Of a stretch of DNA of 32,406 nt, positions 1,184 to 21,883 are shown in pieces. Both the position numbers and the translations under genes were made by a program. Position 1 is the stretch's first letter. Every line of letters starts with the position of its first letter. The DNA is from Candidatus Kaiserbacteria bacterium RIFOXYD1_FULL_42_15. Its GTDB lineage: Bacteria; Patescibacteriota; Minisyncoccia; Phycocordibacterales; UBA918. The notes under the pieces were generated by a model that searched no databases, was not told where the DNA came from, and worked only from the letters and a program-made list of their open reading frames with translations. Where the stretch lies: positions 1-32,406 of the forward strand of contig MFMT01000040.1 of the NCBI GenBank assembly GCA_001783565.1, read 5' to 3'.

Positions 1184-1627
1184 ATGGAGAAAAAAGTAGT
1201 CGGTCTCGAAATACTGAAATTCAATTTTTTTGGTTTGAAATGGAACCAAGCTGATCACTTGGTTTTGATGGTTTTTGATTCCACATCTCACACCTTCGCT
1301 GTCTTTGGCCAAAGACAGCTAGATAGGGGAATGGAGGGTATCTGGTTTGGAAATCCAAAAGCCAGAGCCAAAAAAATCCTGAAGAATTTTTCGCCAAGCA
1401 AGGGACAAATTTTGTCTGTGGCGTATCAAGGATCAGTGGCCTTGAAATGCCAACGTCGCCACTATGTTTTGGTTGAGATGGATTATTGCTCTTTTTCACC
1501 ACAAACTGGCTACAAAACTCTCAATCCTCGGGCGGATTTAGTGGCAGCTCTAGGAGAGATTAACGCGAAAAATATCGCCAAAATCTTGGCGAAAAAATTT
1601 CCTGACCTGTTTCAAATAGCTGCTTAA
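1184..1627 (+). CDS. hypothetical protein (147 aa), no recognisable family
   Basis: Longest ORF in the interval. GGAAGG lies upstream of the ATG and a terminator hairpin follows. No motif recognised. Confidence 0.5.
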   Translation: MEKKVVGLEILKFNFFGLKWNQADHLVLMVFDSTSHTFAVFGQRQLDRGMEGIWFGNPKARAKKILKNFSPSKGQILSVAYQGSVALKCQRRHYVLVEMDYCSFSPQTGYKTLNPRADLVAALGEINAKNIAKILAKKFPDLFQIAA

Positions 1628-3406: not shown

Positions 3407-4783
3407 TCAGTCCGGTCGCTTGACTATGTCGTGTTCACCACGCTTCACATTGAAGCGGCCGGGGTCGGGATCGAGATGAAACCGAAGACCGATGTCACCA
3501 TAGGTGTCGGCTAAGATACCAGCCATTTCCACCGCCCTCGAAGAGAGCGTTGGGTGTACCATGCTGGTGGCCCTAAGTTCAAGCAGATAGACCAGGGCGG
3601 GCAAATCCCCAGCGAGATAGTTACTGATGTTGTATCCCATCGGCAGATAGTATTGTCGCATGGCTGTATCATCAGTAAGACTGGCGGTGACATCAGCTTG
3701 CTCAGCGATGAGTTTCTCCGCCTCAACTCGTAGTGTCGGTGTCAGTTGCGACAGATACCACTCGTTGAAACCGAGCTCGGCTGTCAAAAGAGGCATCCGT
3801 TGCGTTACGGCTCGATGACGCTGGATGTCACGAAAAGAACCGAAGTCCAGTGTGAAAGCAAAAGCAGCTTCGCCATACACCCCAAGCCATTTTGGTAGTT
3901 CGGTTTTTGGTGGTCGGTTGGCAAGTAAATCGCGATAGGGAACAAGTGCCACCTTGTCTACACCGTCACGCACCAAGGCCATGTCGGGCGAGTCTGGGTT
4001 GTGGTAATAGTATCTCGCTATTGTTTCTTCTATGTAATAACGCTCTGTCGCTTCGTACCGTTTCTTTTCTTTATCGAAAGAATTCGGATAGGTGGCGATA
4101 AGGGCGTCTTCCAGGACGTTGGCAATGTCCTGCACTTCGGGCAAAGGATGGTGACGGAGTTGTTGAACCCGGTCAGCAAATTGCCGTAAGGTACCAGACC
4201 AAGCCAGATTAGTTGAGGCACCAGCTGGCAAAAAGCCACGGCAGATATCAAATGCTCGCGCCGCAATTGCCTTGTTGTAGGTCGCTTCTTTTTCTCCTTC
4301 TTGGATTGGATAGCGTGCCGGCAGGGCAGCTTTCATTTCTGTTACCGCTTTGAGATAGAAGGTACGCCAATGCTCGAGCACAGTTGTACCTTCAGTTGAA
4401 TCGAGTGGATTCAAAAACAGCTGGGCGGCAAAGTCGATGTAGCGAGTCGAGGCCTCTTGTCCATTGTAAAGCTTCGAGTCCTGAATCGCTTTGGCGGCCA
4501 GCATTGAGACCCCTTCGATAAAGACAACGGCAGTGCCACAATCGCCGATAGACTTGTGTCCGTAGCCGACATAGTGTGTCGACATGAATTTGTCGGCACC
4601 CTTTTCGGCCAAGACTTTGAGATGTTCGTCCACACCGCCGGTCGAGCGCGAGTGAAGGGCTTGGAGCATGGCTAATGCTTCAGCCGATAGAACAGCGCCT
4701 GGGTCGATGATAACGATTTTACCGCCCCCCTTAAGGGTACTGCGGTGGTGATTCAGGGTCTTGATGGTTTGCATGGTCTTCAT
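3407..4783 (-). CDS. thyX: flavin-dependent thymidylate synthase ThyX, long tandem-domain form (458 aa)
   Basis: Two ThyX-like halves. The N-half has GHKSIGD..QEASTRY..ARAFDICRGFLPAGASTN. The C-half has FRDIQRHRAVTQR..LELRAT..HP. Confidence 0.72.
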   Translation of the reverse strand: MKTMQTIKTLNHHRSTLKGGGKIVIIDPGAVLSAEALAMLQALHSRSTGGVDEHLKVLAEKGADKFMSTHYVGYGHKSIGDCGTAVVFIEGVSMLAAKAIQDSKLYNGQEASTRYIDFAAQLFLNPLDSTEGTTVLEHWRTFYLKAVTEMKAALPARYPIQEGEKEATYNKAIAARAFDICRGFLPAGASTNLAWSGTLRQFADRVQQLRHHPLPEVQDIANVLEDALIATYPNSFDKEKKRYEATERYYIEETIARYYYHNPDSPDMALVRDGVDKVALVPYRDLLANRPPKTELPKWLGVYGEAAFAFTLDFGSFRDIQRHRAVTQRMPLLTAELGFNEWYLSQLTPTLRVEAEKLIAEQADVTASLTDDTAMRQYYLPMGYNISNYLAGDLPALVYLLELRATSMVHPTLSSRAVEMAGILADTYGDIGLRFHLDPDPGRFNVKRGEHDIVKRPD

Positions 4784-4964: not shown

Positions 4965-5605
4965 ATGTCTGCAAAACTTATTCTAATCGAGGGGGGGGTG
5001 ACGGTAGTGGTAAAAGCACCCTTGTCAGAAACCTCACAGAAGCCCTAAAAAAGGAGGGGCAGGATGTTATTGTAACGCGTGAACCGGGCGGTTCACCCAA
5101 GGCCGAAGAAATTCGTCGCCTTATCTTGCAACGAGAGACCGGCGACAACTTTTCGCCCGATGCCGAGATGTTGCTTTTCTACGCAGCCAGACTGCAACAT
5201 CTGTCCGATATTATCGTTCCAGCTTTGATCCGTGGAGAGATTGTGATTTGTGACCGTTTTGAAGTGTCAACCTACGCCTATCAAATTCACGCTCGTTCAG
5301 GTAACGAACCTCTCTTTGCCAAACTCCATCAAGAGGTAGTTCGTCTTCTTAAGCCGCTCAATGTCCATTGTGTCTATGCACATTGCGATATTGACCCTGA
5401 AATTGCCGCCAAACGCGTAGCGTCTGCTGGCAGACTATTACCAGATGTTTTTGACGCCCGCGAACACGCTTTTCATGCACGGGTACGAGAGGGTTATAAG
5501 GTTGCTTCAGGGCATCTCGATGTCATGTTCGAGCACGTTATACTTGATGCAGCCCAAACTCCCGAAGAAGTATTAGCAGAGCTTCGTCACAAACTCAATA
5601 TCTGA
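4965..5605 (+). pseudogene. tmk: thymidylate kinase with its reading frame broken at a G8 homopolymer (track ORF 5126..5605 is the 3' part)
   Basis: AAGGAGG (4951-4957) and ATG 4965 encode MSAKLILIEGG. After the G8 run (4991-4998) that frame stops at 5046-5048. The P-loop GDGSGKST..TREPGG and the rest of Tmk continue in the -1 frame. Confidence 0.85.
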
Positions 5606-8803: not shown

Positions 8804-10495
8804 GTGTCCATGGAAGACGTTATAAAAACAGCTATTGAAGAAGCGCTAGCAGGGCTAGGAATTGAGCCAGTTGATTTTACTGTGGAGCATCCGAGTGATA
8901 TGAGTCATGGTGATTTCGCTTGTAATGTGGCGATGGTGGTAGCTAAGAAAGTGAGGCAATCGCCACGGGAGGTAGCGGAGCAATTGCATACCAAACTCAA
9001 GGGACAAATTGAATATGTGGAAAAAATTGAGGTGGCCGGTCCGGGTTTTCTGAATTTTTATCTAGCTCGCGATTTCTTCACGGTTGAGTTGATGCGAACA
9101 TCTGCTCTCGGTGAGAAGTGGGGACACAATCAATCTTGGTTGGGAAAGAGAGTGGTAGTTGAATACACAGACCCCAACCCATTCAAAGAATTTCATATTG
9201 GTCACCTTTTTACCAATGTTGTGGGTGAAAGTATTGCTCGCCTATTTATGATGGCTGATGCCGATGTAAAACGCGTCTGCTATCAAGGAGATGTTGGTCT
9301 GCATGTCGCTCATGCTATCTGGGGGATGCAAGAACTAGGTATAAAAGCCGAGAGTGATCTTACCTCCCGTGATCTTGGTCGCGCTTATGCGCATGGCGCC
9401 ACGGCCTATAAAAATAATGAGAACGCTAAGGTGGCTATTACTGCGCTCAATAAAATTATTTATGAACGAAGTGATGAAGCGATCAACGTTCTCTATGATG
9501 CTGGCAGGGCAATCTCATTAGCTTATTTTGAGACCATTTACAAATTAGTTGATACAAAATTTGACTGGTACTTTTTTGAGAGTGAGGCAGCCCCGCGTGG
9601 CAAGCAAATAGTGTTGGATAATCCCACCATTTTCGTACCAAGTGACGGAGCTTTTATATTTAAAGGTGAGGATTACGGACTTCACACTCGGGTATTTCTT
9701 AATAAAGCTGGTCTACCGACCTATGAGGCCAAAGAACTGTCCTTAGCAAAAATGAAAGAGGAAGCTCTGGGTATTTATGATCATTCTGTGGTTTCTACCG
9801 CCAAAGAAATTAATGAGTACTTTAAAGTTTTGCTTAAAGCCATGAGTTTTATTTATCCAGAATTAGCCGAAAAGACCGAACATATTGGGCACGGCATGGT
9901 TCGTCTTACTACTGGTAAAATGTCATCACGAACCGGTGAAGTGATTGCGGCAGTTGACTTTATTGCTGATGTAGCAAAAAGTGTCCATGAAAAAATCCTG
10001 ACTGCTGGGGCGATTGAACCAGACGAGATGCTTTGCAATAATGTTGCTCTGGCTGCCATCAAGTACACAACGCTTAAGGGTAGTATTTTTCAGGATACTA
10101 TTTTTGATAAAACCAAGGCCCTTTCCTTTGAAGGTGACTCTGGTCCATATCTACAATACACCCATGCTCGTATTTGTAGTGTGCTCGAGAAGGCGTCCGC
10201 AGTAGGAGTGACACCACAAACGAAAGTTATTCCTCTAGCTCCATATAAAGTAGAGAAAATCCTCGCCCGTTTTGAAGAGGTAGTCAAATCAGCTCTCGAT
10301 GAGAGGGCTCCACACAAGGTCATTACCTATCTAACTGAATTGGCTGGCGAATTCAATACTTTTTACGCCCACGAGAAAATTGCCGACAAGGACGACAAAT
10401 ACGCCCCCTACAAAGCCACCGTAGCCGACGCCGTCCGCCTCACCCTAAAAAACGGCCTTTGGGTTCTAGGCATCAAAGCTCCAGAGCGGATGTAA
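8804..10495 (+). CDS. argS: arginyl-tRNA synthetase
   Basis: N-terminal Arg-tRNA-binding domain, the HIGH-type motif NPFKEFHIGHL, and a C-terminal DALR anticodon-binding region ending in M. An alternative ATG lies at 8810. Confidence 0.95.
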   Translation: MSMEDVIKTAIEEALAGLGIEPVDFTVEHPSDMSHGDFACNVAMVVAKKVRQSPREVAEQLHTKLKGQIEYVEKIEVAGPGFLNFYLARDFFTVELMRTSALGEKWGHNQSWLGKRVVVEYTDPNPFKEFHIGHLFTNVVGESIARLFMMADADVKRVCYQGDVGLHVAHAIWGMQELGIKAESDLTSRDLGRAYAHGATAYKNNENAKVAITALNKIIYERSDEAINVLYDAGRAISLAYFETIYKLVDTKFDWYFFESEAAPRGKQIVLDNPTIFVPSDGAFIFKGEDYGLHTRVFLNKAGLPTYEAKELSLAKMKEEALGIYDHSVVSTAKEINEYFKVLLKAMSFIYPELAEKTEHIGHGMVRLTTGKMSSRTGEVIAAVDFIADVAKSVHEKILTAGAIEPDEMLCNNVALAAIKYTTLKGSIFQDTIFDKTKALSFEGDSGPYLQYTHARICSVLEKASAVGVTPQTKVIPLAPYKVEKILARFEEVVKSALDERAPHKVITYLTELAGEFNTFYAHEKIADKDDKYAPYKATVADAVRLTLKNGLWVLGIKAPERM

Positions 10496-10503
10496 AGCAA
10501 AAC

Positions 10504-10581
10504 AACGAGCGGAAGCGAGTATGATTTTGCTTTGTTCCAGCGATTTGCTCTACCGAGAGCAAATCGCTGGAACCAGAACTC
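10504..10581. repeat. hairpin-containing dispersed repeat (family 2), copy 1
   Basis: A perfect 18-bp stem, GTTCCAGCGATTTGCTCT / AGAGCAAATCGCTGGAAC (10534-10573). The flanks AACGAGCGGAAGCGA and AATCGCTGGAACCAGAACTC recur at 26805-26936. Confidence 0.8.
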
Positions 10582-10602
10582 TCAACAGCGAATCCATGCT
10601 TG

Positions 10603-10904
10603 TTACTGATTAAATCAGATTTATGATATTATCAAAACAGGGAGAGAAACCATGGGGAGGAGGAGTGACATGTTGGCATACTTCTGGTCGCTATTTATGG
10701 GTTTGTATCAACCACCTCCGGATTTGTCCATTAGACATATCCAACCAAACGCCAAGAAGGCGTATTGAGGTGGAATCATCGGCACGGCTTTCCATTTTGG
10801 GAAGCTGTGCCGAATCTGTTTCCAAACCGCAAAATGATGGTAATATACCTAAGCGCACCTGATATGTGCGTTTTAAAAATAATGTCTGATATACATTCAT
10901 ACCT
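10603..10904 (+). promoter_or_regulatory. long structured ileS leader: promoter plus two terminator-like hairpins, possibly a T-box
   Basis: TTACTG, 18-nt spacer, TGaTATTAT (10603-10632). AUC-A at 10707-10710 sits next to a helix. GAGGUGGAAUC (10767-10777) resembles the T-box core. Hairpins lie at 10780-10812 (14-bp stem) and 10853-10874 followed by UUUU. Confidence 0.4.
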
Positions 10905-13900
10905 ATGAACAAACAACATGGACGGGAAAATGATTCTGTCGCAGTAACGCCAGAAGTAGAAAAATCTGATGTGGCTTTGCGCGAAGAAGTTATTCAACAG
11001 TTTTGGAAAGATAACGATATTTTTAATAAAAGCTTGTCCAAACCGGCCGGCGCTGACCCTAAAGGAGACTTTGTATTTTACGACGGACCACCTTTTGCTA
11101 CTGGTACGCCACACTATGGTCATATTTTGGCCGGCACCATTAAGGACGCCATCCCGCGTTTTTGGACAATGCAGGGCTACCATGTCCCACGCAAGTGGGG
11201 CTGGGACTGCCATGGTCTGCCGTTGGAAAATCTGATTGAGAAAAAACTTGGTCTTGGTACCAAGCGTGATATTGAGGCCTTTGGAGTCAAAAACTTTAAC
11301 GAAACCGCCCGTTCGGCTGTTTTGGAATACGCGGATTACTGGGGCAAGGTAGTGCCTCGCATGGGACGTTGGGCTGATATGGAAAGTGATTACCGAACTA
11401 TGGATAGTACCTACACCGAAAGTGTTTGGTGGGTATTTAAGTCACTTCATGATAAAGGTTTGGTATTTGAGGGTTTTAAAAGCATGCACCTTTGTCCTCG
11501 TTGTGGTACAACGCTCAGTAATTTTGAAGTAAACCAAGGATACAAAGACATCAAGGACATTGCCGTGACGGTAAAGCTACCCCTTCTTGATGAACAGGGA
11601 AAGATTACTGACACAAGTTTGCTAGTATGGACAACCACTCCATGGACATTGCCGGGGAATATGGCTACCGCAGTTCACAATGACGTTGAATATACAAAAG
11701 TAAAAATACGGTCATCCGATGACCGTATTTTGGATGAGTGTGTAATTTTGGCAAAAGAACGCCTCGCTCAACTGGGTGACATACCGTACGAAGTTGTCGA
11801 AGAGTTTAAAGGGTCAGCCCTGGTTGGAAAATCATTCCAGCCGCCATTTGATTATTGGTTGAAACAAGATTTTGCTGGAAAAGAAAAGGCCTGGAAAATT
11901 TACCATGCTGATTATGTCGAAGTCGGTGCCGAGGGAACGGGTGCAGTGCATCTTGCTCCGGCCTATGGTGACGATGATATGACCTTGGCCAAAGTACACG
12001 GTGTCCCTATTGTGCATCACGTCAATCCTGATGGTCACTTTATGGACTTCGTAATAGATTTTGCTGGTCAATTGGTCAAGCCCAAGGATGATGAGGCATC
12101 GGAAGTATCACACCTTGATGCAGATATTGAAATTGTCAAAGCGCTTAACGCGAGTGGACGCCTATTCAAGAAAGAAAACATAACGCACAGCTATCCACAC
12201 TGTTGGCGGTGTGATACACCACTCCTCAATTACGCAACGACTTCGTGGTTTGTTAATGTTCCAAAAATCAAAGACGAATTGGTGACTGAGAATAACAAAG
12301 TAAACTGGGTACCAGAATATGTCGGCCGTGCTCGTTTTGGTAATTGGCTGGAAGGAGCTCGCGACTGGGCAGTTTCGCGCCAACGCTACTGGGGTGCACC
12401 ATTGCCAATTTGGAAAAACCCCACCACTGGAGAATATAAAGTCATCGGTTCGCTAGTTGACCTACAACAATATGTACCCAAGAGTGGCAACACCTACTTA
12501 CTCATGCGTCACGGTGAGACAGAGAGTAATGTTAAAGGTGTCATTAGTTCTCATCCTGACAGCCGTGATTCGCTTACACAAAAAGGGCAAGAACAAATCA
12601 AGGCATCCATCGCTGATATCGGTAAAATTGATTTAATCATTCACTCTGGTTTTGAACGCACTCGGCAGACGGCTGAACTGTTGTCGGAAAACCTCGGCGA
12701 AATAGACATAATTGCAGATCAGCGAATTGGTGAACTACAAGCGGGAGACATTCTTGAGGGTAAAACTTGGGACAAATATAACGAACAATTTCCTACTTGG
12801 AAAGACAGATATGAAATGGTTATCCCTAATACAGAAAATCGGCGCGATGTTCAGGTGCGTATGGGCAAATTCCTGTTTGAGTTAGAGCAGACATATAAGA
12901 ATAAAAGAATTTTGATTATTAGTCATGCCGGTCCACTCTTTGCCCTTGAATCAGCGGCTCGAGGTTTGAATCCCGAAGGAGCAAAAGATTATTATGATAC
13001 ATTAAAAAATATGTATTTTAATAATTCCGAAATTCGAGAATTGAACTTTACACCATTCCCTCACAACTATAACCTTGAACTCGACTATCATCGTCCGTAC
13101 ATTGATGAAATCGATTTATTTGACACTGACGGGACAAAGCTCGAGCGAGTGCCGGATGTTTTCGATTGTTGGTTTGAAAGTGGGTCAATGCCGTATGGTC
13201 AACATCATTACCCGTTTGAAAATAAAGAAGAATTTGAAAAAAATCTCTTCCCAGCTCAGTTTATTGCTGAAGGTTTGGATCAAACTCGGGGCTGGTTCTA
13301 TTCGCTGATTGTTCTTGGAACGGCGTTGTTTGGAAAATCCCCTTATCAAAATGTAATAGTAAACGGACTGGTCTTGGCGGAGGATGGTAAAAAGATGAGT
13401 AAATCACTCAAGAACTATCCAGACCCAATGGAGTTGGTTGACAGGATGGGGGCTGATGCCATGCGTCTATACTTGATGACGTCACCGGTAATCCGTGGTG
13501 AGGACTTGAACTTTTCTGAAAAAGAAGTTTTGGAATTACAACGAAAAAATATTGGACGGCTACACAATGTGTTGGCTATGTATGAGATGTTTGCTGATGG
13601 GACCGAGGCGCACAAAAATTCTACTCATATATTAGATAGATGGATTATGGCGCGGCTCAATGAATTGACCGCTTCGTCTACTGCCGGCTATAAGTCCTAT
13701 GAACTTGATAAAGCCACTCGGCCAATAATTGATTTTATTGATGATTTATCGGTTTGGTATCTACGCCGTTCACGAGATCGGTTTAAAGGTTCTGATGAAT
13801 CAGATAGAACGGCAGCCCTAGGTACTTTGCGTTATATTCTTCGTGAGTTAGCTAAAGTTATCGCTCCAGCGATGCCGTTTTATGCTGAATATTTGTGGTT

Positions 13901-14459
13901 GGTGGTGCGCAGTGAAAGTGAGCCAGAAAGTGTCCACCTAACCGCCTGGCCAGAGGGCGGGGAAGTTGACGAAATGCTATTAGAAGAAATGAAAAAAGCC
14001 CGTCAGATAGTTACTCTGGCCCTGGAAGCACGTGTCAAAGCCAATCTAAAAGTGCGTCAGCCACTCCAATCAATATCAGGACCAAAATTATCAGCTGAAA
14101 TTGTTGACACGGTATTGGGTGAGGTTAATGCTAAAGAATATAAAATAATAAATTCTCCATCCACTGAGGAATTTCTAGTTCAGATAGATACAGAAATTAC
14201 TCCAGCTCTCAAGGCCGAAGGTGACGCTCGGGAATTTATCCGCGCTATCCAAGAGCAACGTAAAGCTAGTGGATTCGCGCCACAGGATCGTATTATTCTC
14301 ACCGTTGAGGTGAATGAAGTTGGCGAGAGTCTTATCAAAAAATTCATGTCCGAAATCCAAAAGGTAACCGGAACCGAGGTTTTTATATTTGGCACAAACA
14401 AGGGCGTCAAGATATCTGCCGGTGAGTCCACATTTGTGGTGTTGCTCCAAAGAAAATAA
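10905..14459 (+). CDS. ileS: isoleucyl-tRNA synthetase (type 2-like) with an inserted histidine-phosphatase domain
   Basis: PHYGHIL (HIGH), TTTPWTLPGN (editing), RQRYWGAPLPIW, DCWFESGS and KKMSKSLKNYPDP. The insert at ~12489-13070 carries RHGE and SHAG motifs. Confidence 0.97.
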   Translation: MNKQHGRENDSVAVTPEVEKSDVALREEVIQQFWKDNDIFNKSLSKPAGADPKGDFVFYDGPPFATGTPHYGHILAGTIKDAIPRFWTMQGYHVPRKWGWDCHGLPLENLIEKKLGLGTKRDIEAFGVKNFNETARSAVLEYADYWGKVVPRMGRWADMESDYRTMDSTYTESVWWVFKSLHDKGLVFEGFKSMHLCPRCGTTLSNFEVNQGYKDIKDIAVTVKLPLLDEQGKITDTSLLVWTTTPWTLPGNMATAVHNDVEYTKVKIRSSDDRILDECVILAKERLAQLGDIPYEVVEEFKGSALVGKSFQPPFDYWLKQDFAGKEKAWKIYHADYVEVGAEGTGAVHLAPAYGDDDMTLAKVHGVPIVHHVNPDGHFMDFVIDFAGQLVKPKDDEASEVSHLDADIEIVKALNASGRLFKKENITHSYPHCWRCDTPLLNYATTSWFVNVPKIKDELVTENNKVNWVPEYVGRARFGNWLEGARDWAVSRQRYWGAPLPIWKNPTTGEYKVIGSLVDLQQYVPKSGNTYLLMRHGETESNVKGVISSHPDSRDSLTQKGQEQIKASIADIGKIDLIIHSGFERTRQTAELLSENLGEIDIIADQRIGELQAGDILEGKTWDKYNEQFPTWKDRYEMVIPNTENRRDVQVRMGKFLFELEQTYKNKRILIISHAGPLFALESAARGLNPEGAKDYYDTLKNMYFNNSEIRELNFTPFPHNYNLELDYHRPYIDEIDLFDTDGTKLERVPDVFDCWFESGSMPYGQHHYPFENKEEFEKNLFPAQFIAEGLDQTRGWFYSLIVLGTALFGKSPYQNVIVNGLVLAEDGKKMSKSLKNYPDPMELVDRMGADAMRLYLMTSPVIRGEDLNFSEKEVLELQRKNIGRLHNVLAMYEMFADGTEAHKNSTHILDRWIMARLNELTASSTAGYKSYELDKATRPIIDFIDDLSVWYLRRSRDRFKGSDESDRTAALGTLRYILRELAKVIAPAMPFYAEYLWLVVRSESEPESVHLTAWPEGGEVDEMLLEEMKKARQIVTLALEARVKANLKVRQPLQSISGPKLSAEIVDTVLGEVNAKEYKIINSPSTEEFLVQIDTEITPALKAEGDAREFIRAIQEQRKASGFAPQDRIILTVEVNEVGESLIKKFMSEIQKVTGTEVFIFGTNKGVKISAGESTFVVLLQRK

Positions 14460-15040
14460 TGTCTTATCAGACCTATACAACCGAAGCCATGGTTTGCGGT
14501 AGTTATGCTAATAATACGGCCGACAAGTCATTTCTCCTGTTTACCAAACGGGCTGGCATGATTTATGCTACGGCGCGCAGTGTACGTGAAGAACGGAGTC
14601 GCCAGCGTTACGCCCTGCAAGATTTTTCCCTTGTTTCAGTTTCTTTGGTGCACGGCAAGAGTGGATGGCGGATTGGTAGTGTTGAGGCCCGCGGAAATAT
14701 TTTTTCTATCGCTACCACTAGGTCAGAGAGGGGAAGTATCGTCCGTTTGGTAAAAATGCTTCGGCGTTTTGTTCAAGGAGAGGAACCTCATCCAGAATTA
14801 TACGAAGAATTCCTACATAGTCTCGATTACTTATCAATCATTCCAGATACGGAACGACCAACCTTAGAAAAATTATTGATGGTGCGATTACTATATCTAT
14901 TAGGATATATTGCACCCCCTGCAGAAATTAAGCTGTTATTAGAGCACTCTCTTGAATCACTGGATATTTTAACCATAAAATCACAGATAAATTCTATTGA
15001 ACGGTTACTAGAAAACGCTCAGACAGTCAGTCATCTATAG
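14459..15040 (+). CDS. recO: DNA repair protein RecO, short form (193 aa)
   Basis: N-terminal OB-like pattern TEAMVCGS..DKSFLLFTKRAGMIYATARSVREERSRQRYALQDFS, then LRLLYLLGYIAP. The start overlaps the ileS stop (ATAATG). Confidence 0.6.
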   Translation: MSYQTYTTEAMVCGSYANNTADKSFLLFTKRAGMIYATARSVREERSRQRYALQDFSLVSVSLVHGKSGWRIGSVEARGNIFSIATTRSERGSIVRLVKMLRRFVQGEEPHPELYEEFLHSLDYLSIIPDTERPTLEKLLMVRLLYLLGYIAPPAEIKLLLEHSLESLDILTIKSQINSIERLLENAQTVSHL

Positions 15041-15135
15041 TTTATGTTGAAAATGAAGTCTCGGTTCATCTCCGTTTTTGACGGGTGTGACTTGAAAGAC
15101 GAATTATCATATAAAATGATATACTGTTGACTAAT

Positions 15136-17112
15136 ATGCCACCGCTTAAAAATCAAGCTCAGATTGAAGACATGCGTCGCCGGCTCTATGAACGGGGTAT
15201 TAACATTACCCCCAAAAAACGACACGAATTATCTGACAATCCTCAAAAGGTGGCTGATTCTTGGCAATACGATAGACCCGCAGTTTCTAGCCCAACTGCA
15301 TCAATTGGGGATTCTGACCCCAGACCGGCCACATTAACCAAACCAAAGCTTGAAGTGTTAACACCTACCACAGAAACCAAGAAGAGGTGGTTTCATAATT
15401 ATCGAACTATTATTCTCATGGTGACTTTAGTGTCATTCTTAGTGGTTCTTGGTGGTACAAGTATCTACTTATTTTTTGGGTCAAATCAAATATCAAACAA
15501 AAATATTGATATTAATATTAGCGGTTCCTTAACCACTGGCGGAGGCGAAATCATGTCTCTTCAGGTTACGGTTGCTAATCTCAATAAAGTATCTATTGAA
15601 TCAGCAGTCCTGATTGTTAATTATCCCTCGGGCACCAAATCGGCTGATGATACTGCCAAAGATCTTTTTGAGGATAGAATTCAGTTAAATAGCATCAATG
15701 CTGGAGAGACAATAAATGTTCCGGTCAAAGCAGTTATGTACGGGGAAGAAAATCAGGAAGGAGAAATCAAGGCCACGATTGAATATCGTTTAGTTGATTC
15801 TAATGGCACTTTTTATAAAGATGCCACTCCATTGGTTTTTAGAATAACCTCCTCTCCTTTAGTTATCCGGGTTGATTCTGTTAGTAAAGTGTCGGCTGGA
15901 CAAGAGGTGGATGTTACCTTAACCATTCAGTCCAATGCCTCAACGCCTCTAAAAGATATTATTGTTTCGGCAGATTATCCCACCAACTTTGATTTTACTA
16001 GTTCTGAGCCGGCTCCAAGCTATCGAGAAAACTCTTGGTTGATTAAGGAAATAGCGCCAGAGGAATCAACTACCATCGTGCTTAAGGGGTTGATTGTCGG
16101 AAAGCAAAACGAAGAATTTCGAATTCAGTTTTTGGCTGGCACTCCACAGCAAAACAACCAATTTATAATTGGCTCAACTTTGGCTGAGGCCAGCGCAGAT
16201 TTTATTATTGAACAACCTTTTATTGATGTTGGACTCAGTATCAACGGCCTAAAAGGAGAAGTAGTTACCCTACAAACTGGTGAAGAAACAACCGTTGTCG
16301 TAGAGGTGCAAAATACTCTAGTTGACACCCTTTATAATATGTCTCTTGAGGTTGGGGTAGTTGGGAACAGCATCATCAAAGATCATGTTACAGTCCAAAA
16401 TGGTTATTATGATTCAGTAAAAAATGTTATCCGGTACCAGGTTTCAGGTGATTCCTCTCTGGCCCAGGTGGCTCCGGGGGCGACTAAGCGTTTCACCTTT
16501 TCAATTTTACCCAGTAATCAAAAACAAACTCCCTCATTTATGGTGACAGCCAATGCGTACGCTAGACGAGTTTCTGAGGATAGTGCCACCGAGCAACTGG
16601 TCGGTACAGCGAAATCGGAAGCCAAATTTGCTTCATCAGTCAGTATGGTTGGTAAAATCACTCACGGCTCTGGTGTGTTTACCGATATTGGCGCAATACC
16701 ACCGATAGCAGATACTAAAACAACCTACACCGTAACATTGACAGCTGGCGCAGGTGGCAATAATGTCTCAGGAGTGTCCGTGTCATCCTCTTTACCACAA
16801 TATGTTGGTTGGGAGAATAAAACCACCGGAGACGGTACAATAATTTTTAATCCGGTTTCCAATGAAATAACTTGGACGGTGGGAGATATTGTAGCTGGTA
16901 AAGAAAAGCAAATTAGTTTCCAAATTAGTTTGCTACCAAGTCAAAACCAAATCGGCACCACCCCAGCTCTACTCGGAGCCCAAAGACTGCGCGGTACTGA
17001 TTTATTTACTGGTACGGTGGTACGGGCAGAAGCGGTTCCATTGAGTGCGGAGCTGGACAAAAGTTTAGGTTTTGGAATAGATAACGGCGTTGTCGGAAGA
17101 ACAGCTGATTAA
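15136..17112 (+). CDS. membrane-anchored surface protein with tandem beta-sandwich (DUF11/CARDB-like) repeats
   Basis: One TM segment (IILMVTLVSFLVVLGGTSIYLFF) followed by four or more ~100-aa modules sharing the pattern G-E/Q-x-V-x-V-x-V-x-V-x-N. The track start TTG 15127 is an alternative. Confidence 0.75.
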   Translation: MPPLKNQAQIEDMRRRLYERGINITPKKRHELSDNPQKVADSWQYDRPAVSSPTASIGDSDPRPATLTKPKLEVLTPTTETKKRWFHNYRTIILMVTLVSFLVVLGGTSIYLFFGSNQISNKNIDINISGSLTTGGGEIMSLQVTVANLNKVSIESAVLIVNYPSGTKSADDTAKDLFEDRIQLNSINAGETINVPVKAVMYGEENQEGEIKATIEYRLVDSNGTFYKDATPLVFRITSSPLVIRVDSVSKVSAGQEVDVTLTIQSNASTPLKDIIVSADYPTNFDFTSSEPAPSYRENSWLIKEIAPEESTTIVLKGLIVGKQNEEFRIQFLAGTPQQNNQFIIGSTLAEASADFIIEQPFIDVGLSINGLKGEVVTLQTGEETTVVVEVQNTLVDTLYNMSLEVGVVGNSIIKDHVTVQNGYYDSVKNVIRYQVSGDSSLAQVAPGATKRFTFSILPSNQKQTPSFMVTANAYARRVSEDSATEQLVGTAKSEAKFASSVSMVGKITHGSGVFTDIGAIPPIADTKTTYTVTLTAGAGGNNVSGVSVSSSLPQYVGWENKTTGDGTIIFNPVSNEITWTVGDIVAGKEKQISFQISLLPSQNQIGTTPALLGAQRLRGTDLFTGTVVRAEAVPLSAELDKSLGFGIDNGVVGRTAD

Positions 17113-17134
17113 GTAGATCCAGATAATTAAATAC

Positions 17135-18544
17135 ATGACTGATAAAATTAAACAAAACAACGAGACGCAATCTGAAGCCAATTGCATGGAGAAAATAGTC
17201 GCTCTAGCCAAACGCCGTGGCTTTGTCTTTCAAGGCAGTGAAATCTATGGTGGTCTTAAGGGCACTTGGGATTATGGGCCACTCGGGGTGGCTTTGAATA
17301 ACAACATCAAGCGTGAGTGGTGGAAAATGTTTGTGGACAGTCGGGAGGATATGTATGGTTTAGACGCTTCTATTTTAATGAACGCCAAAGTCTGGGAGGC
17401 GAGTGGACACACGGCTACTTTTTTTGATCCATTAGTGGAGGACACCAAAACCGGCGAGCGCTTCAGGGTTGACCATCTTTTAAAGGAAGGTGGAATTGAT
17501 GTCGCTGGTATGACTTTGGCTGAAATGGATACTATTATCAAAGACCGAGAAATCAAGAGTCCGCAAGGTAATCCACTTTCGCCAGCCCGACAATTCAATA
17601 TGATGTTTGAGACCTCAGTCGGAGCTACTGCCGGTCTCGATAGCACTGTCTATCTCCGTCCCGAAACCGCTCAAGGTATTTTTGTGAATTTTAAAAATGT
17701 CGTGGATTCGATGTCGCCCAAAATACCGTTTGGTATTGCCCAGATAGGCAAGGCCTTTCGCAACGAGATTGCACCTCGCGAGTGGTTATTCCGTGTGCGT
17801 GAGTTTGAGCAAATGGAAATTGAGTATTTTGTGCGTGAAAGCGAATGGGAGAAACAGTTTGAGAAACTCCGCCTGGATATGCAAAAGTGGCATAAGCACA
17901 TCGGGCTGTCTGCTGAGAATATCCGCGAGTATGAGGTTCCAGCCAATGATCTCGCACACTACAGTAAACGCACGATTGACTTCGAGTATAATTTCCCTGG
18001 TAAAGGTTTTGATGAATTGGCCGGCTTTGCTTACCGCACTGATCACGATTTGAAAAAACACATGGAAGCTAGCGGAGTTTCAATGGAATACATTGAACCA
18101 GACGGTACCAGATTTATTCCGCATGTCCTTGAGCCATCCTTTGGTGTGGGGCGCACCTTCACGGCCATTTTATGTGAGGCGTACACCGAGGACGAAATGA
18201 ATGGGGAAGTTCGTACCTATTTAAAGCTTCCTGCCCACCTAGCACCATATCGTGTCGCCGTCTCTCCACTCTTACGCAATAAACCAGAGTTGGTAGAAAA
18301 AGCCCGGGCAGTTTTTTCAATGCTAAAGGCGGAATTTGGTAATGTGGCTTGGGATGACAATGGTAATGTAGGTAAGCGTTATCGTCGCCAAGACGAAATC
18401 GGTACTCCGGCCTGCATTGTGATAGATTTTGAAACCCTCGGACAAGAAAAACCCGAATTAAAAGATACCGTCACCGTCCGCAATAGAGATACTGGAGAGC
18501 AAGTCCGTGTTGTTATCAGTGATCTTATGTCCTACTTAAAATAA
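17135..18544 (+). CDS. glyQS: glycyl-tRNA synthetase (alpha2 class II type)
   Basis: RRGFVFQGSEIYGGLKGTWDYGPLG, YLRPETAQGIF, FRNEI.PR, and a C-terminal anticodon-binding domain. Confidence 0.95.
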   Translation: MTDKIKQNNETQSEANCMEKIVALAKRRGFVFQGSEIYGGLKGTWDYGPLGVALNNNIKREWWKMFVDSREDMYGLDASILMNAKVWEASGHTATFFDPLVEDTKTGERFRVDHLLKEGGIDVAGMTLAEMDTIIKDREIKSPQGNPLSPARQFNMMFETSVGATAGLDSTVYLRPETAQGIFVNFKNVVDSMSPKIPFGIAQIGKAFRNEIAPREWLFRVREFEQMEIEYFVRESEWEKQFEKLRLDMQKWHKHIGLSAENIREYEVPANDLAHYSKRTIDFEYNFPGKGFDELAGFAYRTDHDLKKHMEASGVSMEYIEPDGTRFIPHVLEPSFGVGRTFTAILCEAYTEDEMNGEVRTYLKLPAHLAPYRVAVSPLLRNKPELVEKARAVFSMLKAEFGNVAWDDNGNVGKRYRRQDEIGTPACIVIDFETLGQEKPELKDTVTVRNRDTGEQVRVVISDLMSYLK

Positions 18545-19131
18545 TGCTCCCAGAATATTTCGCACTAATCGGCGTAGGTATTGCTTCACTTGGTGGTTTT
18601 TATTATTTATACTGTACCTTACGTGGCACGGTCAGGCCTCACAAAATGACCTATTTCTTTTTTGGGCTTTTTTCATTAATAGCATTTGCATCGCAATTAT
18701 CCCAAGGCGTGGGGATGATTGCCTGGGCAACTTTTATTGCTGGTTTGACGCCGTTCATAATTTTAGTTGCTGCTTCTTTTAACTCCAACGCCTATTGGCA
18801 GATAAAACGAACAGATTATTTGTATGGGATTATTGCCGTTTTGGCTATGGTGATATGGTACATAACCAACGAACCAAATATCGCTTTAGCCCTTGCACTT
18901 ATTGCAGATTTTTTTGTCGCGATTCCAACGCTTATAAAAACCTATCAGTATCCAAAGACTGAAAGCTGGCAAGCGTATGGAATTAACGCGGTCGGATTTG
19001 GTGTAGGCATCTTCTCAATTCACACTTGGACGTTCGAGAATTATGCCTTCCTCGTATACTTATTCGTCGTCAACGTTTCAATAACGGCCCTCGCCCTAGC
19101 CCTAAGAAATGAAAGCCCTGTAGCGCAGTAA
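18544..19131 (+). CDS. integral membrane protein (~6 TM), function unknown
   Basis: Highly hydrophobic 195-aa ORF. The start overlaps the glyQS stop (TAATG). Confidence 0.7.
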   Translation: MLPEYFALIGVGIASLGGFYYLYCTLRGTVRPHKMTYFFFGLFSLIAFASQLSQGVGMIAWATFIAGLTPFIILVAASFNSNAYWQIKRTDYLYGIIAVLAMVIWYITNEPNIALALALIADFFVAIPTLIKTYQYPKTESWQAYGINAVGFGVGIFSIHTWTFENYAFLVYLFVVNVSITALALALRNESPVAQ

Positions 19132-19159
19132 TATCTTTTTGTGGTACTGTATTTGTATT

Positions 19160-20602
19160 ATGTCAGAGAAAAAACCCCGCTATATTACTACCACCTTGCC
19201 GTATGTAAACGCAGACCCACACATAGGGTTTGCTTACGAGTTATTGGTAGGGGACGCACTGGCTCGTTATTGGCGGCTTATGGGCCACGAAGTATTTTTC
19301 AATACCGGGACTGATGAACACGGGCAAAAAATCGCTGAAAAAGCCGACGAAGAGGGCACTCCTCGGCAAGAATACATTGACCACTATGCTAGTAAATTTG
19401 CCAGACTAAAAGAATCACTAAACCTTTCCTTCGATAATTTTATTCGTACCAGTGATTCAGGTCATCAAGTTGCTGCCCAGTCCATTTGGCAAAAATGTGA
19501 AGCCAAGGGTGATATTTATAAAAAGTCATACAAAGGACTCTATTGTGTGGGAGACGAAATGTTTTTACGCGATAGCGATTTAGTAGACGGGCGTTGCCCG
19601 AACCATCCCAACGTCGATCCGGTAGAAATAGAAGAGGAAAATTATTTTTTCAAACTTTCCAACTATCAAAAGCAACTTGAAGAATATTTATCAGACCCAA
19701 CTCGAACAATGTCAGAATCGTACCGCAAGTGGGCGCTTGATTTTGTCACTGCTGGTCTAGATGATTTGAGTATTTCCCGTAGCAAGGCACGTTTGGATTG
19801 GGGTATTCCGGTACCCGGAGATGATGAACAAGTAATGTATGTTTGGTTTGATGCCTTGACTAACTACATCTCTACACTTGGCTGGCCCACAGATACAAAA
19901 GGTGACTTCGATAAGTTTTGGGTAGGTGGAGAAACACTGCAACTTGCCGGTAAAGACCAGGTGCGTTTCCAATCAATCATTTGGCAGGCCATGCTTATGT
20001 CAGCCGATGTTAAACAAACTGACACTATTATTTATCACGGTTTCATCAATAGCGGGGGACAAAAGATGAGTAAGTCGCTCGGTAACGTCATTTCCCCGTA
20101 CGAATTGGTAGAAAAATATGGTACCGAAGCCACGCGCTATCTTCTGTTGCGACACGTCCATCCTTCTGATGACACCGATATTACCTGGGAGCGTCTCGAC
20201 GAATGGTACACCGCTAATCTAGTCAACGGCCTCGGCAACCTCGTCGCCCGCGTCATGAAGATGGCCGAAACACATCTCACTGAACCGGTAGCACGACCGG
20301 AAGCAATTGATTTCGCCGATGAATACGCGCATGCTTTTCAAAACTTTAACCCCCAACAAGCCACTGAGTATATTTGGTCACTAATTGGCATACTTGATGA
20401 ACGGATTACAACTGAAGAGCCATTTAAGTTGGTAAAAACGGATTTGGAAAAAGCTAAAGCTATTATCCGTGAACTGATGTTCGAAGTATACACTATTGCT
20501 CTCTTACTAAACCCCATCATGCACAAAACTTCTAAAATAATTAAAGAAGCCGTCCTCGCCAACAAAAAACCCAATAATCTTTTTAATCGTCTAGATGTTT
20601 AA
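19160..20602 (+). CDS. metG: methionyl-tRNA synthetase
   Basis: YITTTLPYVNADPHIGF (HIGH-type) and KMSKSLGN. I prefer ATG 19160 over the track's TTG 19139. Confidence 0.95.
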   Translation: MSEKKPRYITTTLPYVNADPHIGFAYELLVGDALARYWRLMGHEVFFNTGTDEHGQKIAEKADEEGTPRQEYIDHYASKFARLKESLNLSFDNFIRTSDSGHQVAAQSIWQKCEAKGDIYKKSYKGLYCVGDEMFLRDSDLVDGRCPNHPNVDPVEIEEENYFFKLSNYQKQLEEYLSDPTRTMSESYRKWALDFVTAGLDDLSISRSKARLDWGIPVPGDDEQVMYVWFDALTNYISTLGWPTDTKGDFDKFWVGGETLQLAGKDQVRFQSIIWQAMLMSADVKQTDTIIYHGFINSGGQKMSKSLGNVISPYELVEKYGTEATRYLLLRHVHPSDDTDITWERLDEWYTANLVNGLGNLVARVMKMAETHLTEPVARPEAIDFADEYAHAFQNFNPQQATEYIWSLIGILDERITTEEPFKLVKTDLEKAKAIIRELMFEVYTIALLLNPIMHKTSKIIKEAVLANKKPNNLFNRLDV

Positions 20603-21427: not shown

Positions 21428-21883
21428 TCAAACCTTTCGGTTAACCGAAAGGTTTTTGGATCTCTTTTCGCGGTCTTTTTGGTATGCTTCAGAAGCCTGC
21501 GTTTGCCCGTAATGGGGAAGTACCCCGCCCAAATGCAGAATTGAGTCAATTGTTTCAATCAGTTCAATATACCGCGCCTTTCGCTTTGCAATTGCTTCTA
21601 GAAGCAAATCATACCGACCTTCCTGGATACTCAACTTATAGTTTTTAGCAGTTGATGTACTTATCTTGAGAGCTGATGCCACCAAATAGAGTGATTGACC
21701 GTGAGTTAACATAATTATGGCAGCCAAACGCTTAGCCAACATAATCTTTTCTTCGGCTCCTAAAAAACTAGAAAGAAACAGTTCGGATTTCTTCGCGCCC
21801 AGTTGCCCAATCGTTCCGTTTAGTTGACCAAAAAGTGCATCCAATTCGGTTTGCTCTAATATCTCTTTTGATACATTAACCAT
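21428..21883 (-). CDS. TrpR/YerC-like helix-turn-helix DNA-binding protein (151 aa)
   Basis: EEKIMLAKRLAAIIMLTHGQSLYLVASALKISTSTAKNY resembles the Trp-repressor/YerC HTH core. The last 8 codons and the stop lie inside palindrome copy 2. Confidence 0.7.
   Translation of the reverse strand: MVNVSKEILEQTELDALFGQLNGTIGQLGAKKSELFLSSFLGAEEKIMLAKRLAAIIMLTHGQSLYLVASALKISTSTAKNYKLSIQEGRYDLLLEAIAKRKARYIELIETIDSILHLGGVLPHYGQTQASEAYQKDREKRSKNLSVNRKV
21430..21455. promoter_or_regulatory. palindrome copy 2 (core 21431-21454)
   Basis: 26-bp perfect palindrome overlapping the 3' end of the HTH gene. Confidence 0.85.

Follow-up and report, generated by a model that had tools for sequence, protein, structure and literature searches.

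A histidine phosphatase domain embedded in the isoleucyl-tRNA synthetases of Paceibacteria-type CPR bacteria

Few enzymes are as conserved or as well studied as the aminoacyl-tRNA synthetases (aaRSs), and we know of essentially no extra catalytic domains, editing domains aside, in the catalytic core of the bacterial ones. What, then, is a phosphatase doing inside an isoleucyl-tRNA synthetase (IleRS)? The question is raised by a stretch of 32,406 nucleotides from Candidatus Kaiserbacteria bacterium RIFOXYD1_FULL_42_15 (the window; all features below are on its + strand). A first-pass annotation made from the letters alone had placed a complete histidine phosphatase domain in-frame within the catalytic region of IleRS, at 12489-13070. 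These coordinates correspond to residues 529-722 of a continuous open reading frame of 1184 amino acids, and the claim is borne out by Pfam and NCBIfam, by residue conservation, and by AF2 models combined with a fold search. The motifs quoted there are all present (RHG at 535-537, R585, E610, H674, HYGH at 70, KMSKS at 830 and, in a motif scan, RQRYWG at 492).

By profile and signature motifs, the host protein is a type-2 (eukaryote-like) isoleucyl-tRNA synthetase, encoded by ileS at 10905..14459. In an NCBIfam search it scores 858.9 bits against TIGR00392, above the equivalog cut-off of 621.4, and phmmer searches against solved IleRS give E-values down to 1e-206. Pfam finds tRNA-synt_1 in two pieces around His_Phos_1, followed by Anticodon_1 and DUF5915. 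The HIGH signature reads HYGH (residues 70-73, 11112..11123), with H70, G72 and H73 invariant in 120 homologues, and in the KMSKS signature (residues 830-834, 13392..13406) the same is true of K830, S832 and K833. The CP1 editing motifs (TTTPWT and GTGxVHxAP) are retained, again with invariant residues among the 120 (W242-T248, G344, G346, H349 and A353). The AF2 model superposes on Priestia megaterium IleRS2 (8c8v) and the yeast enzyme (8wnd) with a target-normalised TM of ∼0.8. With these two and with Thermus thermophilus IleRS (1ile), enzymes of the mupirocin-insensitive type, the window protein has its whole body in common, that is the HIGH/KMSKS Rossmann fold, the CP core, CP1 editing, CP2, CP3, the anticodon-binding domain and the DUF5915 C-terminal domain. 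Two special classes were rejected: the GNAT-bearing IleRS family NF040702 (327.7 bits vs a cut-off of 1999) and the MupA/MupB resistance IleRS (NF000257/8; 638 and 653 vs 1900). An Rfam search of the ileS leader for a T-box or other known RNA gave no match.

Where 8c8v, 1ile and 8wnd have a CP3 linker of about 7 residues and no second catalytic domain, the window protein carries a 200-aa phosphatase. The domain (residues 525-725, 12477..13079, identified by Pfam, AF2 and Foldseek) divides CP3, whose limits were taken from PMC7191050 and PMC7955072. The N-terminal half of CP3 (residues 498-524, 12396..12476) is the 5' flank of the insertion point, here called site A, and the C-terminal half together with the DCWFESGS strand (residues 726-767, 13080..13205) is the 3' flank, in which 120 homologues show no variation in LDYHRPYID and VFDCWFESG. 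Alignment with solved structures stops at residue 522 and picks up again at 727, past the insert; relative to human IleRS (9w01_B), the step from 522 to 727 corresponds to that from 490 to 498, with about 204 aa in place of about 7. Upstream lies the CP2-CP3 linker ARDWAVSRQRYWG (residues 485-497, 12357..12395), and the equivalent segment 453-465 of yeast IleRS lines the tRNA-CCA/reveromycin pocket (PMC7955072). Site A is 25 residues downstream of this linker (ARDWxxSRxRYWG), and the annotation's placement of the domain next to the aminoacylation site is thus correct in terms of the linear sequence (PMC7955072). CP3 itself is a structurally variable, peripheral subdomain (PMC7191050). Flanks without Zn-binding cysteines had also been described, and rightly so: since the only cysteines of the entire protein are at 102, 197, 200, 279, 433, 436 and 755, its CP3 lacks those of the Zn knuckle. 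The insert lies between the two halves of this knuckle, whose cysteines are gone in the window's subfamily. The idea that the insert took the place of the knuckle is rejected, as 46 of 92 site-A enzymes retain cysteines on both sides of it.

An arrangement of this kind could in principle arise when an assembly chimera or a frameshift artefact joins a phosphatase gene to ileS. No evidence for this was found. The junctions are the same in hundreds of assemblies made independently and drawn from four data sources, no break interrupts the reading frame, the GC content of the insert is 0.40 vs 0.44 for the whole of ileS, and the full-length AF2 model has pLDDT above 90 at the junctions. An artefact is therefore refuted for practical purposes.

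It remains to be asked what kind of phosphatase this is. A profile search and a fold prediction had both been proposed in the annotation. The former gives His_Phos_1 (PF00300) nested in split tRNA-synt_1, at residues 532-694, with E=4.8e-29 and 101.9 bits vs a cut-off of 21.7, and the insert modelled alone by AF2 reaches pLDDT 95.2 and pTM 0.91. Foldseek with this model finds as top matches an Rv2419c-type phosphatase, 9mmh, CobC, PspA and PhoE, and against solved histidine phosphatases it gives E=1e-12 and a TM of about 0.75, pointing to the alpha/beta/alpha fold of the superfamily. By profile, catalytic residues and predicted fold, the insert is a member of branch 1 of the histidine phosphatase superfamily. 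The earlier label "PGM-like" calls for a qualification: judged by cut-offs and nearest relatives, the sequence is of the PspA/PhoE/CobC-like phosphatase type and not a PGM mutase. Profiles for dPGM are far from reached (dPGM_arch 63.8 vs 225, GpmB 55.1 vs 261, PRK01295 35.8 vs 316), and solved dPGMs align to the N-terminal half of the insert alone, with ∼30 bits. Among the closest solved relatives is PspA (4ij5, E=1.4e-21). PspA (NF045917, 50.5 vs 350) and CobC (TIGR03162, 67.2 vs 162.9) are nearest relatives of the insert, but it is a member of neither family, and the insert reaches no NCBIfam equivalog cut-off. PspA (4ij5), PhoE (1h2e), CobC (6nru/6e4b), Rv2419c (4qih) and the riboflavin-pathway HFP (9mmh) share the fold (TM 0.68-0.76) and the catalytic residues with the insert and have a cap region about as large, at 20-28% identity; they are, however, free-standing proteins of ∼200 aa with known metabolite substrates, whereas the insert is nested in or beside an aaRS. 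Two observations suggest that the substrates of the domain are small: its nearest relatives in both sequence and structure are capped metabolite phosphatases, and it is acidic and without a consistent basic surface (median pI 5.2 in the window's subfamily, variable elsewhere).

The residues required for catalysis are conserved to a striking extent. Arg535 and His536 of the RHG motif (12507..12512), the latter being the predicted phospho-accepting nucleophile, occur in 120/120 close homologues and in 106/106 divergent representatives. Arg585 (12657..12659), a predicted second phosphate-binding arginine, Glu610 (12732..12734), the predicted general acid, and His674 (12924..12926), the predicted second catalytic histidine, are likewise found in all 120 close homologues, and among 108 divergent domains in 107, 103 (plus three with Asp) and 108, respectively. 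In enzymes with two phosphatase copies, both active sites are intact in every case. As a whole, however, the domain diverges more quickly than the body of the synthetase, with 47% identity to the window protein vs 76% for the body, and a mean column entropy of 1.65 vs ∼0.5 bits. In the mechanism that is standard for this superfamily, His536 would attack a terminal phosphoryl group gripped by Arg535, Arg585 and His674, Glu610 would donate a proton to the leaving group, and the phospho-histidine would then be hydrolysed. Residues and models together thus suggest an active phosphatase. A different reading would be that the fold is kept without turnover, as a structural brace for CP3 or as a ligand-sensing regulatory domain. 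The position between the halves of a knuckle that has lost its cysteines in the window's subfamily would fit this, as would the junction residues N529 and P719-H720-N721, which are invariant in 120 homologues and confidently modelled by AF2. It is nevertheless very improbable: all catalytic residues are kept in ∼100 deeply divergent representatives while the remainder drifts, about half of the site-A enzymes still have the Zn knuckle, and the domain is equally present at two other sites and as a free-standing protein (see below).

In the survey of orthologues that had been suggested, none of the 120 nearest clusters at 90% identity (NCBI, JGI, ENA and Logan) lacks the insert, and 80 or more GTDB species genomes (Paceibacteria/Parcubacteria) have it, with each of the 80 best species-representative loci spanning the entire flank-insert-flank query. 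A His_Phos domain is present in 103 of the 150 best representatives of clusters at 50% identity. Such an occurrence is far beyond chance, and the embedded phosphatase is an ancient, clade-wide trait of Paceibacteria-type CPR bacteria, which has been lost repeatedly among relatives. The annotation had been aware of no aaRS with this architecture. Literature searches on IleRS in connection with histidine phosphatase, PGM, GNAT or CPR domain architecture turned up no relevant paper, and the embedded phosphatase is apparently undescribed; the case is not a singular one, though, and since the trait is already visible in precomputed Pfam annotations it is widespread in the databases. Several of these proteins are labelled by NCBI merely as "class I tRNA ligase family protein".

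What is new here is that the phosphatase occupies three alternative loops, sometimes in double copy and with companion inserts, that it has been lost repeatedly, and that a free-standing version adjoins ileS. Insertion gaps were measured between local HMM anchors. In addition to site A in CP3, the domain is found at site B (residues 897-908, 13593..13628) and site C (residues 768-783, 13206..13253), both of which are empty in the window, and some enzymes have two intact copies. Site B holds His_Phos in seven relatives. According to Pfam, site C is filled by a domain of the His_Phos, GNAT, Ser_hydrolase or P-loop kind in four relatives, of which one (P0205) is also among the seven. GNAT inserts were seen in three relatives of the window protein, and in one relative His_Phos is paired with a P-loop kinase-like domain. 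A comparison of phosphatase domains, made to see whether those at sites A, B and C were acquired separately, gives similar identities between sites (29-31%) and within sites (31-36%). A word-indexed homologue search with a site-B phosphatase domain as the query gave no matches. Given that the domain is also found in two other loops, the exact geometry is probably not critical, and the three loops and repeated losses show that the domain does not need an exact position and that some lineages can do without it. A stand-alone Ser_hydrolase ORF of the window was compared with the Ser_hydrolase insert of relative P0205; with 22% identity (E=6e-4) they share a superfamily, and the ORF is not an orthologue.

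The gene neighbourhood adds a further form of the same association. Across 80 related loci, the conserved neighbours of insert-bearing ileS are housekeeping genes only: argS, encoding ArgRS, lies upstream (8804..10495 in the window; 42/80), and a RecO-like gene downstream (14459..15040; 59/80), its start overlapping the ileS stop. A gene for SHMT is also part of the window's ileS block according to Pfam. In all four free-standing clusters examined, the phosphatase is encoded immediately upstream of an insert-less ileS, within the same ArgRS-IleRS-RecO block and again with ArgRS upstream. A HIT hydrolase gene was found to overlap a free-standing phosphatase gene. These free-standing phosphatases score 94-120 bits against an HMM of the embedded domains, where the remaining bacterial histidine phosphatases have a median of 57, and they nest among the embedded domains in a rooted tree, calculated by NJ on saturated data like all phosphatase trees here. 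Among seven insert-less relatives picked without regard to the phosphatase, only one has a free-standing copy nearby, and loci such as P0178, P0144 and L084-L086 keep the synteny with no phosphatase within 10 kb.

Because the lineage is either fused to ileS or adjoins it, the phosphatase most likely cooperates with IleRS, and the pattern speaks for a phosphomonoesterase that is dedicated to IleRS and of the small-metabolite type. The reading that we lean towards, if only by a little, is one of two enzymes working together in one polypeptide. The body would be a type-2 IleRS of the canonical kind, competent in editing and charging tRNA-Ile normally, and the CP3 loop would carry an autonomous, catalytically competent small-substrate phosphatase of the PspA/PhoE/CobC type, from a lineage that appears tied to ileS as an embedded domain or as a separate gene directly upstream. 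It may act as a local clearing module, taking the terminal phosphate off a small phosphorylated molecule that arises as product or by-product of aminoacylation or editing, or that inhibits them, conceivably an adenine-nucleotide-type compound or pyrophosphate, which would keep charging favourable in energy-poor, reduced cells. Ap4A, which had been suggested early on, lacks a terminal phosphate, and on chemical grounds it is an unlikely substrate for this superfamily.

It is possible, though rather unlikely, that the domain is a housekeeping metabolite phosphatase, for instance the phosphatase for phosphoserine, sugar phosphates or the riboflavin pathway that a reduced genome otherwise lacks, and that it rides on surface loops permissive to insertion, in a protein that is essential and constitutively expressed, with no mechanistic link to aminoacylation. 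Its closest solved relatives are such enzymes (PspA, riboflavin HFP, CobC, Rv2419c), CP3 is peripheral and variable, the domain uses alternative loops and is repeatedly lost, unrelated small enzymes (GNAT, Ser_hydrolase, P-loop) share those loops, and SHMT is in the gene block. A generic enzyme, however, gives no reason for an association with ileS, fused and unfused, across very deep divergence, nor for re-placement or duplication inside a single host protein, and among the four free-standing clusters the lineage was not found away from ileS. That it has moved between loops, been duplicated, or split off and yet stayed adjacent implies that the pairing of IleRS and phosphatase is selected.

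Less probable still is a phosphatase that acts on macromolecules and restores charging, either on tRNA-Ile carrying a 3'-phosphate or 3'-pyrophosphate left by toxic RelA/SpoT homologues, or on a KMSKS loop phosphorylated by a HipA-like kinase. The domain is tethered in cis to an enzyme that binds the CCA end, and site A is near the linker of that pocket. The superfamily includes the protein phosphatases Sts-1, PGAM5 and SixA, and in GltX/TrpS the KMSKS-type serine is the phosphorylation target of HipA/HipT toxins. The domain, however, resembles capped small-molecule phosphatases and not the open SixA type, it is acidic in the window's subfamily and variable elsewhere, the varying insertion site speaks against precise docking, none of the known toxins of these kinds is to our knowledge specific for IleRS, and no conserved kinase or toxin gene was found in the neighbourhoods. 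A broader claim, that the phosphatase is an obligate partner of IleRS and a new accessory activity of synthetases, either resetting phosphorylated enzyme or tRNA or destroying a phosphorylated product or inhibitor at the active site, is put forward tentatively and is on balance doubtful. A reset, if true, would be a regulatory switch or a counter-measure to kinase or pyrophosphokinase toxins.

Compared with known systems, the arrangement has partial precedents. The insertions of class Ia synthetases (CP1 editing, the leucine-specific domain of LeuRS, the CP3 Zn knuckle) are also modules in loops of the Rossmann region, but the known ones serve tRNA handling or editing or are small Zn knuckles, and we know of no phosphomonoesterase among them. 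The IleRS of NF040702, with its N-acetyltransferase domain, is a precedent for an extra enzymatic domain, of a different family than the window's phosphatase. Histidine phosphatases are fused to another enzyme in 6-phosphofructo-2-kinase/fructose-2,6-bisphosphatase and in the RNase H/acid phosphatase of the Rv2228c type (NF005567, which matches the insert at 61-65 bits in NCBIfam); these are end-to-end fusions with a known metabolic logic, whereas here the domain is inside the fold of a translation enzyme.

A genome-reduced, uncultivated radiation thus retains a phosphatase, intact by its residues, joined to IleRS. The identity of the substrate could reveal an unrecognised by-product of aminoacylation, a regulatory phosphorylation or an inhibitor, and could explain the economy of translation quality control in minimal cells. 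The three permissive loops mark where IleRS tolerates insertions of 200 aa, which may be of use in engineering. If the phosphatase is indeed an accessory activity, it would form, together with its GNAT, hydrolase, kinase-like and HIT companions, a modular "housecleaning toolkit" on the IleRS of CPR bacteria. It is worth noting that these companions (the HIT gene and the inserts of the GNAT, Ser_hydrolase and P-loop kinase-like types) have nucleotides or acyl groups as their targets, which favours a role coupled to IleRS.

The ileS gene of the window (10905-14459, + strand) is a single unbroken frame of 1184 aa. In Pfam its tRNA-synt_1 match falls into two pieces with His_Phos_1 (PF00300) between them at aa 532-694 (E=4.8e-29, 101.9 bits vs a cut-off of 21.7), and Anticodon_1 and then DUF5915 lie C-terminal of the split domain. 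The first-pass annotation had placed a complete, in-frame histidine-phosphatase domain at 12489-13070, which corresponds to aa 529-722; the nested profile match bears this out, and the motifs quoted with it are all found (RHG 535-537, R585, E610, H674, HYGH 70 and KMSKS 830). The synthetase body is canonical. It is ileS by the NCBIfam model TIGR00392 (858.9 bits vs a cut-off of 621.4), the full-length model superposes on the type-2 IleRS structures 8c8v, 8wnd and 1ile, and the 120 close homologues show no variation in HIGH, KMSKS, the CP1 editing motifs or the Zn cysteines of the CP core. The HIGH, KMSKS and editing motifs are intact, as claimed. Window residues 522 and 727 align with 490 and 498 of human cytoplasmic IleRS (9w01_B), leaving ~204 residues in the window where canonical type-2 IleRS has ~7. 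By published CP3 boundaries (yeast 459-526, Candida 473-534; PMC7191050, PMC7955072) the insertion point is within CP3, a peripheral subdomain whose structure varies among Candida, Thermus (Zn motif) and S. aureus (PMC7191050); the CP2-3 linker, which precedes CP3, lines the CCA/reveromycin pocket (PMC7955072). The flanks of the insert contain no cysteines here, in agreement with the earlier statement that Zn ligands are missing there. About half of the enzymes with a CP3 insert keep CxxC...CxxC around it, meaning that the phosphatase lies between the knuckle halves, and this rules out the insert as a replacement of the CP3 Zn knuckle.

The insert is neither an artefact nor rare. All of the best 120 clusters at 90% identity (64-73% identical, 1160-1226 aa; from NCBI, JGI, ENA and Logan) combine PF00300 with IleRS domains, and their named members are Patescibacteria, Paceibacterota and Kaiserbacteria. 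When a flank-insert-flank query was run over the GTDB species representatives, at least 593 candidates were confirmed by tblastn; each of the best 80 covers the whole query, and the names they carry are Paceibacterota, Nomura-, Kaiser-, Taylor-, Lloyd-, Zambryskii- and Yonathbacteria and Parcubacteria. In the 50%-identity library the domain is present in 103 of the 150 best representatives, down to ~37% overall identity. The GC content of the insert (0.40) is near that of the gene (0.44). One insert-bearing locus (L030, QYPD01000003.1) comes from a MAG with the label Spirochaetia, on a contig of 8.5 kb that is probably CPR sequence binned wrongly, and the Paceibacteria-type gene is also found in many CAY/CAZ TPA assemblies whose label 'uncultured Candidatus Saccharibacteria' looks generic. 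Full-text literature searches gave no description of this IleRS-phosphatase architecture, in line with the first reading, and the embedded phosphatase, though widespread in databases, is apparently uncharacterised.

The insert is less conserved than the body in the 120 close homologues (mean identity to the window 47% vs 76%; mean column entropy 1.65 bits vs ~0.5 in the Rossmann halves). Of its columns 12 are invariant, among them the full superfamily catalytic set (R535, H536, N542, R585, E610 and H674) and also E644 and R652, which are typical of the family. In the 108 domains taken from divergent representatives, R535/H536 are kept in 106/106, R585 in 107/108, H674 in 108/108 and E610 in 103/108, with 3 Asp; the active site is under strong purifying selection. 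The insert is the highest-confidence part of the full-length AlphaFold model (block pLDDT 92-97), and a model of the insert by itself has pLDDT 95.2 and pTM 0.91. Its Foldseek neighbours are capped small-metabolite phosphatases at TM ~0.7-0.75 (Rv2419c-type glucosyl-3-phosphoglycerate phosphatase, the riboflavin-pathway HFP 9mmh, CobC, PspA, PhoE and TIGAR), the best match of the insert profile is PspA 4ij5 (E=1.4e-21), and true dPGM mutases match over the N-terminal half only, at ~30 bits. The domain is therefore a His_Phos branch 1 member of phosphatase rather than mutase type; the superfamily named in the earlier label, histidine-phosphatase (PGM-like), stands. The insert reaches no NCBIfam equivalog cut-off. 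What is shown is a phosphatase that is intact and well folded and belongs to the capped small-substrate type.

A related phosphatase also occurs as a separate gene. In the locus of the insert-less enzyme P0146 (L083), a 186-aa free-standing His_Phos_1 gene lies between ArgRS and IleRS; it scores 103.9 bits against an HMM of the embedded domain and shares 40-44% identity with embedded domains. A search seeded with it yielded free-standing proteins of 186-223 aa in ~20 clusters. All three further clusters examined (P0281, P0280 and P0274) lie a short way upstream of an insert-less ileS (1013-1024 aa) and on its strand, and the ArgRS/RecO/DUF11-CLIPPER block around them is again the same. With the embedded-domain HMM the free-standing forms score 94-120 bits; the median is 122 for embedded representatives and 57 for other bacterial histidine phosphatases. 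In a neighbour-joining tree rooted on the last of these, embedded and free-standing forms make up one group, the free-standing clade being nested within it. The embedded or neighbouring state together with the shared lineage gives a fusion/neighbourhood (Rosetta-stone) signal of a functional link. The phosphatase is persistently, though not obligatorily, associated with ileS: among seven insert-less relatives chosen regardless of phosphatase, only L083 has a copy within 10 kb. In three loci (L089-L091) a HIT-family gene (L089:8558-9043, 161 aa, weakly HinT-like) overlaps the phosphatase stop by 13 nt, directly before ileS. Substrates of HIT hydrolases include aminoacyl-adenylates and dinucleoside polyphosphates. 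A conserved single-pass membrane peptide of 48-63 aa (...DE.L..F.VK.VG.V.L.F.I.A...D.Y...) is encoded right before the free-standing phosphatase in three independent lineages (L089:7833-7988, L092:7845-7991, L094:7650-7841), with no counterpart in the ArgRS-IleRS gap of the window.

The position of the embedded domain is flexible. By four HMM anchors, 89 of the 150 best representatives have it at the window's CP3 position only (site A), 5 only in the loop at aa 767/784, between DCWFESGSMPY and FIAEGLDQTRGWF (site C), and 4 only in the loop at aa 896/909, before the anticodon-binding domain (site B); two carry it at B and C, one each at A and B, at A and C, and in tandem at A, and 47 have none. 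Two-copy enzymes retain the catalytic residues in both copies in every case, and six B/C-type enzymes form a coherent subgroup (body identity 58-66%). The same loops house GNAT domains (P0190, P0236, P0251), a Ser_hydrolase domain (P0205, site C) and a P-loop small-molecule-kinase-like domain (P0171). For GNAT with IleRS the literature gave one match, about an unrelated biosynthetic cluster; NCBIfam has an IleRS-with-GNAT model, so domain-bearing IleRSs are already recognised as a kind. We infer that the phosphatase uses His536 for catalysis and cooperates with IleRS; the main rival explanation takes the domain for a passenger metabolic phosphatase housed in loops where insertion is permitted. 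In the window's subfamily the domain is acidic (median pI 5.2), and elsewhere its charge is inconsistent; together with the flexible position, this argues against a tRNA-end or KMSKS-loop phosphatase that docks precisely and favours a diffusible small substrate. The reading tentatively preferred is that the enzyme would locally clear a phosphorylated nucleotide-type product, by-product or inhibitor of the aminoacylation/editing cycle. Adenylates or aminoacyl esters would be conceivable targets of all the companions (HIT, kinase-like, GNAT and hydrolase).

IleRSs without the insert are intermixed with those that have it, and several of the former are nearest to insert-bearing enzymes: P0178 shares 70% identity with the site-A enzyme P0139 vs 58% with any insert-less enzyme. 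The insert-less P0144 is 62% identical to the window IleRS and, like the window's subfamily, is without CP3 cysteines, which fits a secondary deletion. Three loci (L084-L086) keep the window synteny SHMT-ArgRS-IleRS-RecO with the insert absent. In several lineages selfish-looking genes occur in or beside the phosphatase-ileS interval (L092:8946-10383, L094:10465-11025, L086:3899-4447, L094:3865-4110; 23S_rRNA_IVP four-helix proteins, Mrr_cat nuclease, Y1 transposase and GIY-YIG). Recombination may be frequent in this stretch, a possible hot spot, and could account for the shuffling of domains.

As for the surroundings, four synthetase genes (ArgRS, IleRS, GlyRS and MetRS) lie on one strand within 12 kb (8804-20602), with GlyRS at 17135-18544 (NF003211, 580.7 bits), and the order ArgRS-IleRS-RecO-DUF11 is kept in most related loci. 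The 409-nt ileS leader has a GC-rich 16-bp stem-loop (10779-10813, + strand) 92 nt before the start, and a second palindrome (around 10528-10581) is found just after argS; neither matches an Rfam family, which rules out a T-box. A stand-alone Ser_hydrolase ORF (PF06821; 20595-21209, + strand) overlaps the end of MetRS (19139-20602) by 8 nt and is only 22% identical to the inserted domain of P0205 (E=6e-4); a similar small hydrolase gene comes right after ileS in 3/80 related loci (e.g. L058:5118-5705). Three ORFs of 147-195 aa are without a Pfam match: 1184-1627 (+), 21428-21883 (-) and 18544-19131 (+), the last between GlyRS and MetRS and abutting the GlyRS stop. The thymidylate kinase ORF (5126-5605, + strand) matches profile positions 50-182 of 185 only; its N-terminal P-loop part seems to be absent as called, perhaps because the start was called wrongly or the ORF is frameshifted or truncated. 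Amid dCTP deaminase, Tmk, dUTPase and SHMT genes, the 458-aa ORF at 3407-4783 (- strand) is a divergent ThyX-like protein, with a weak and partial Pfam Thy1 match at aa 48-232 (TIGR02170, 24.7 vs 87.9 bits) and ~220 C-terminal aa outside the family match.
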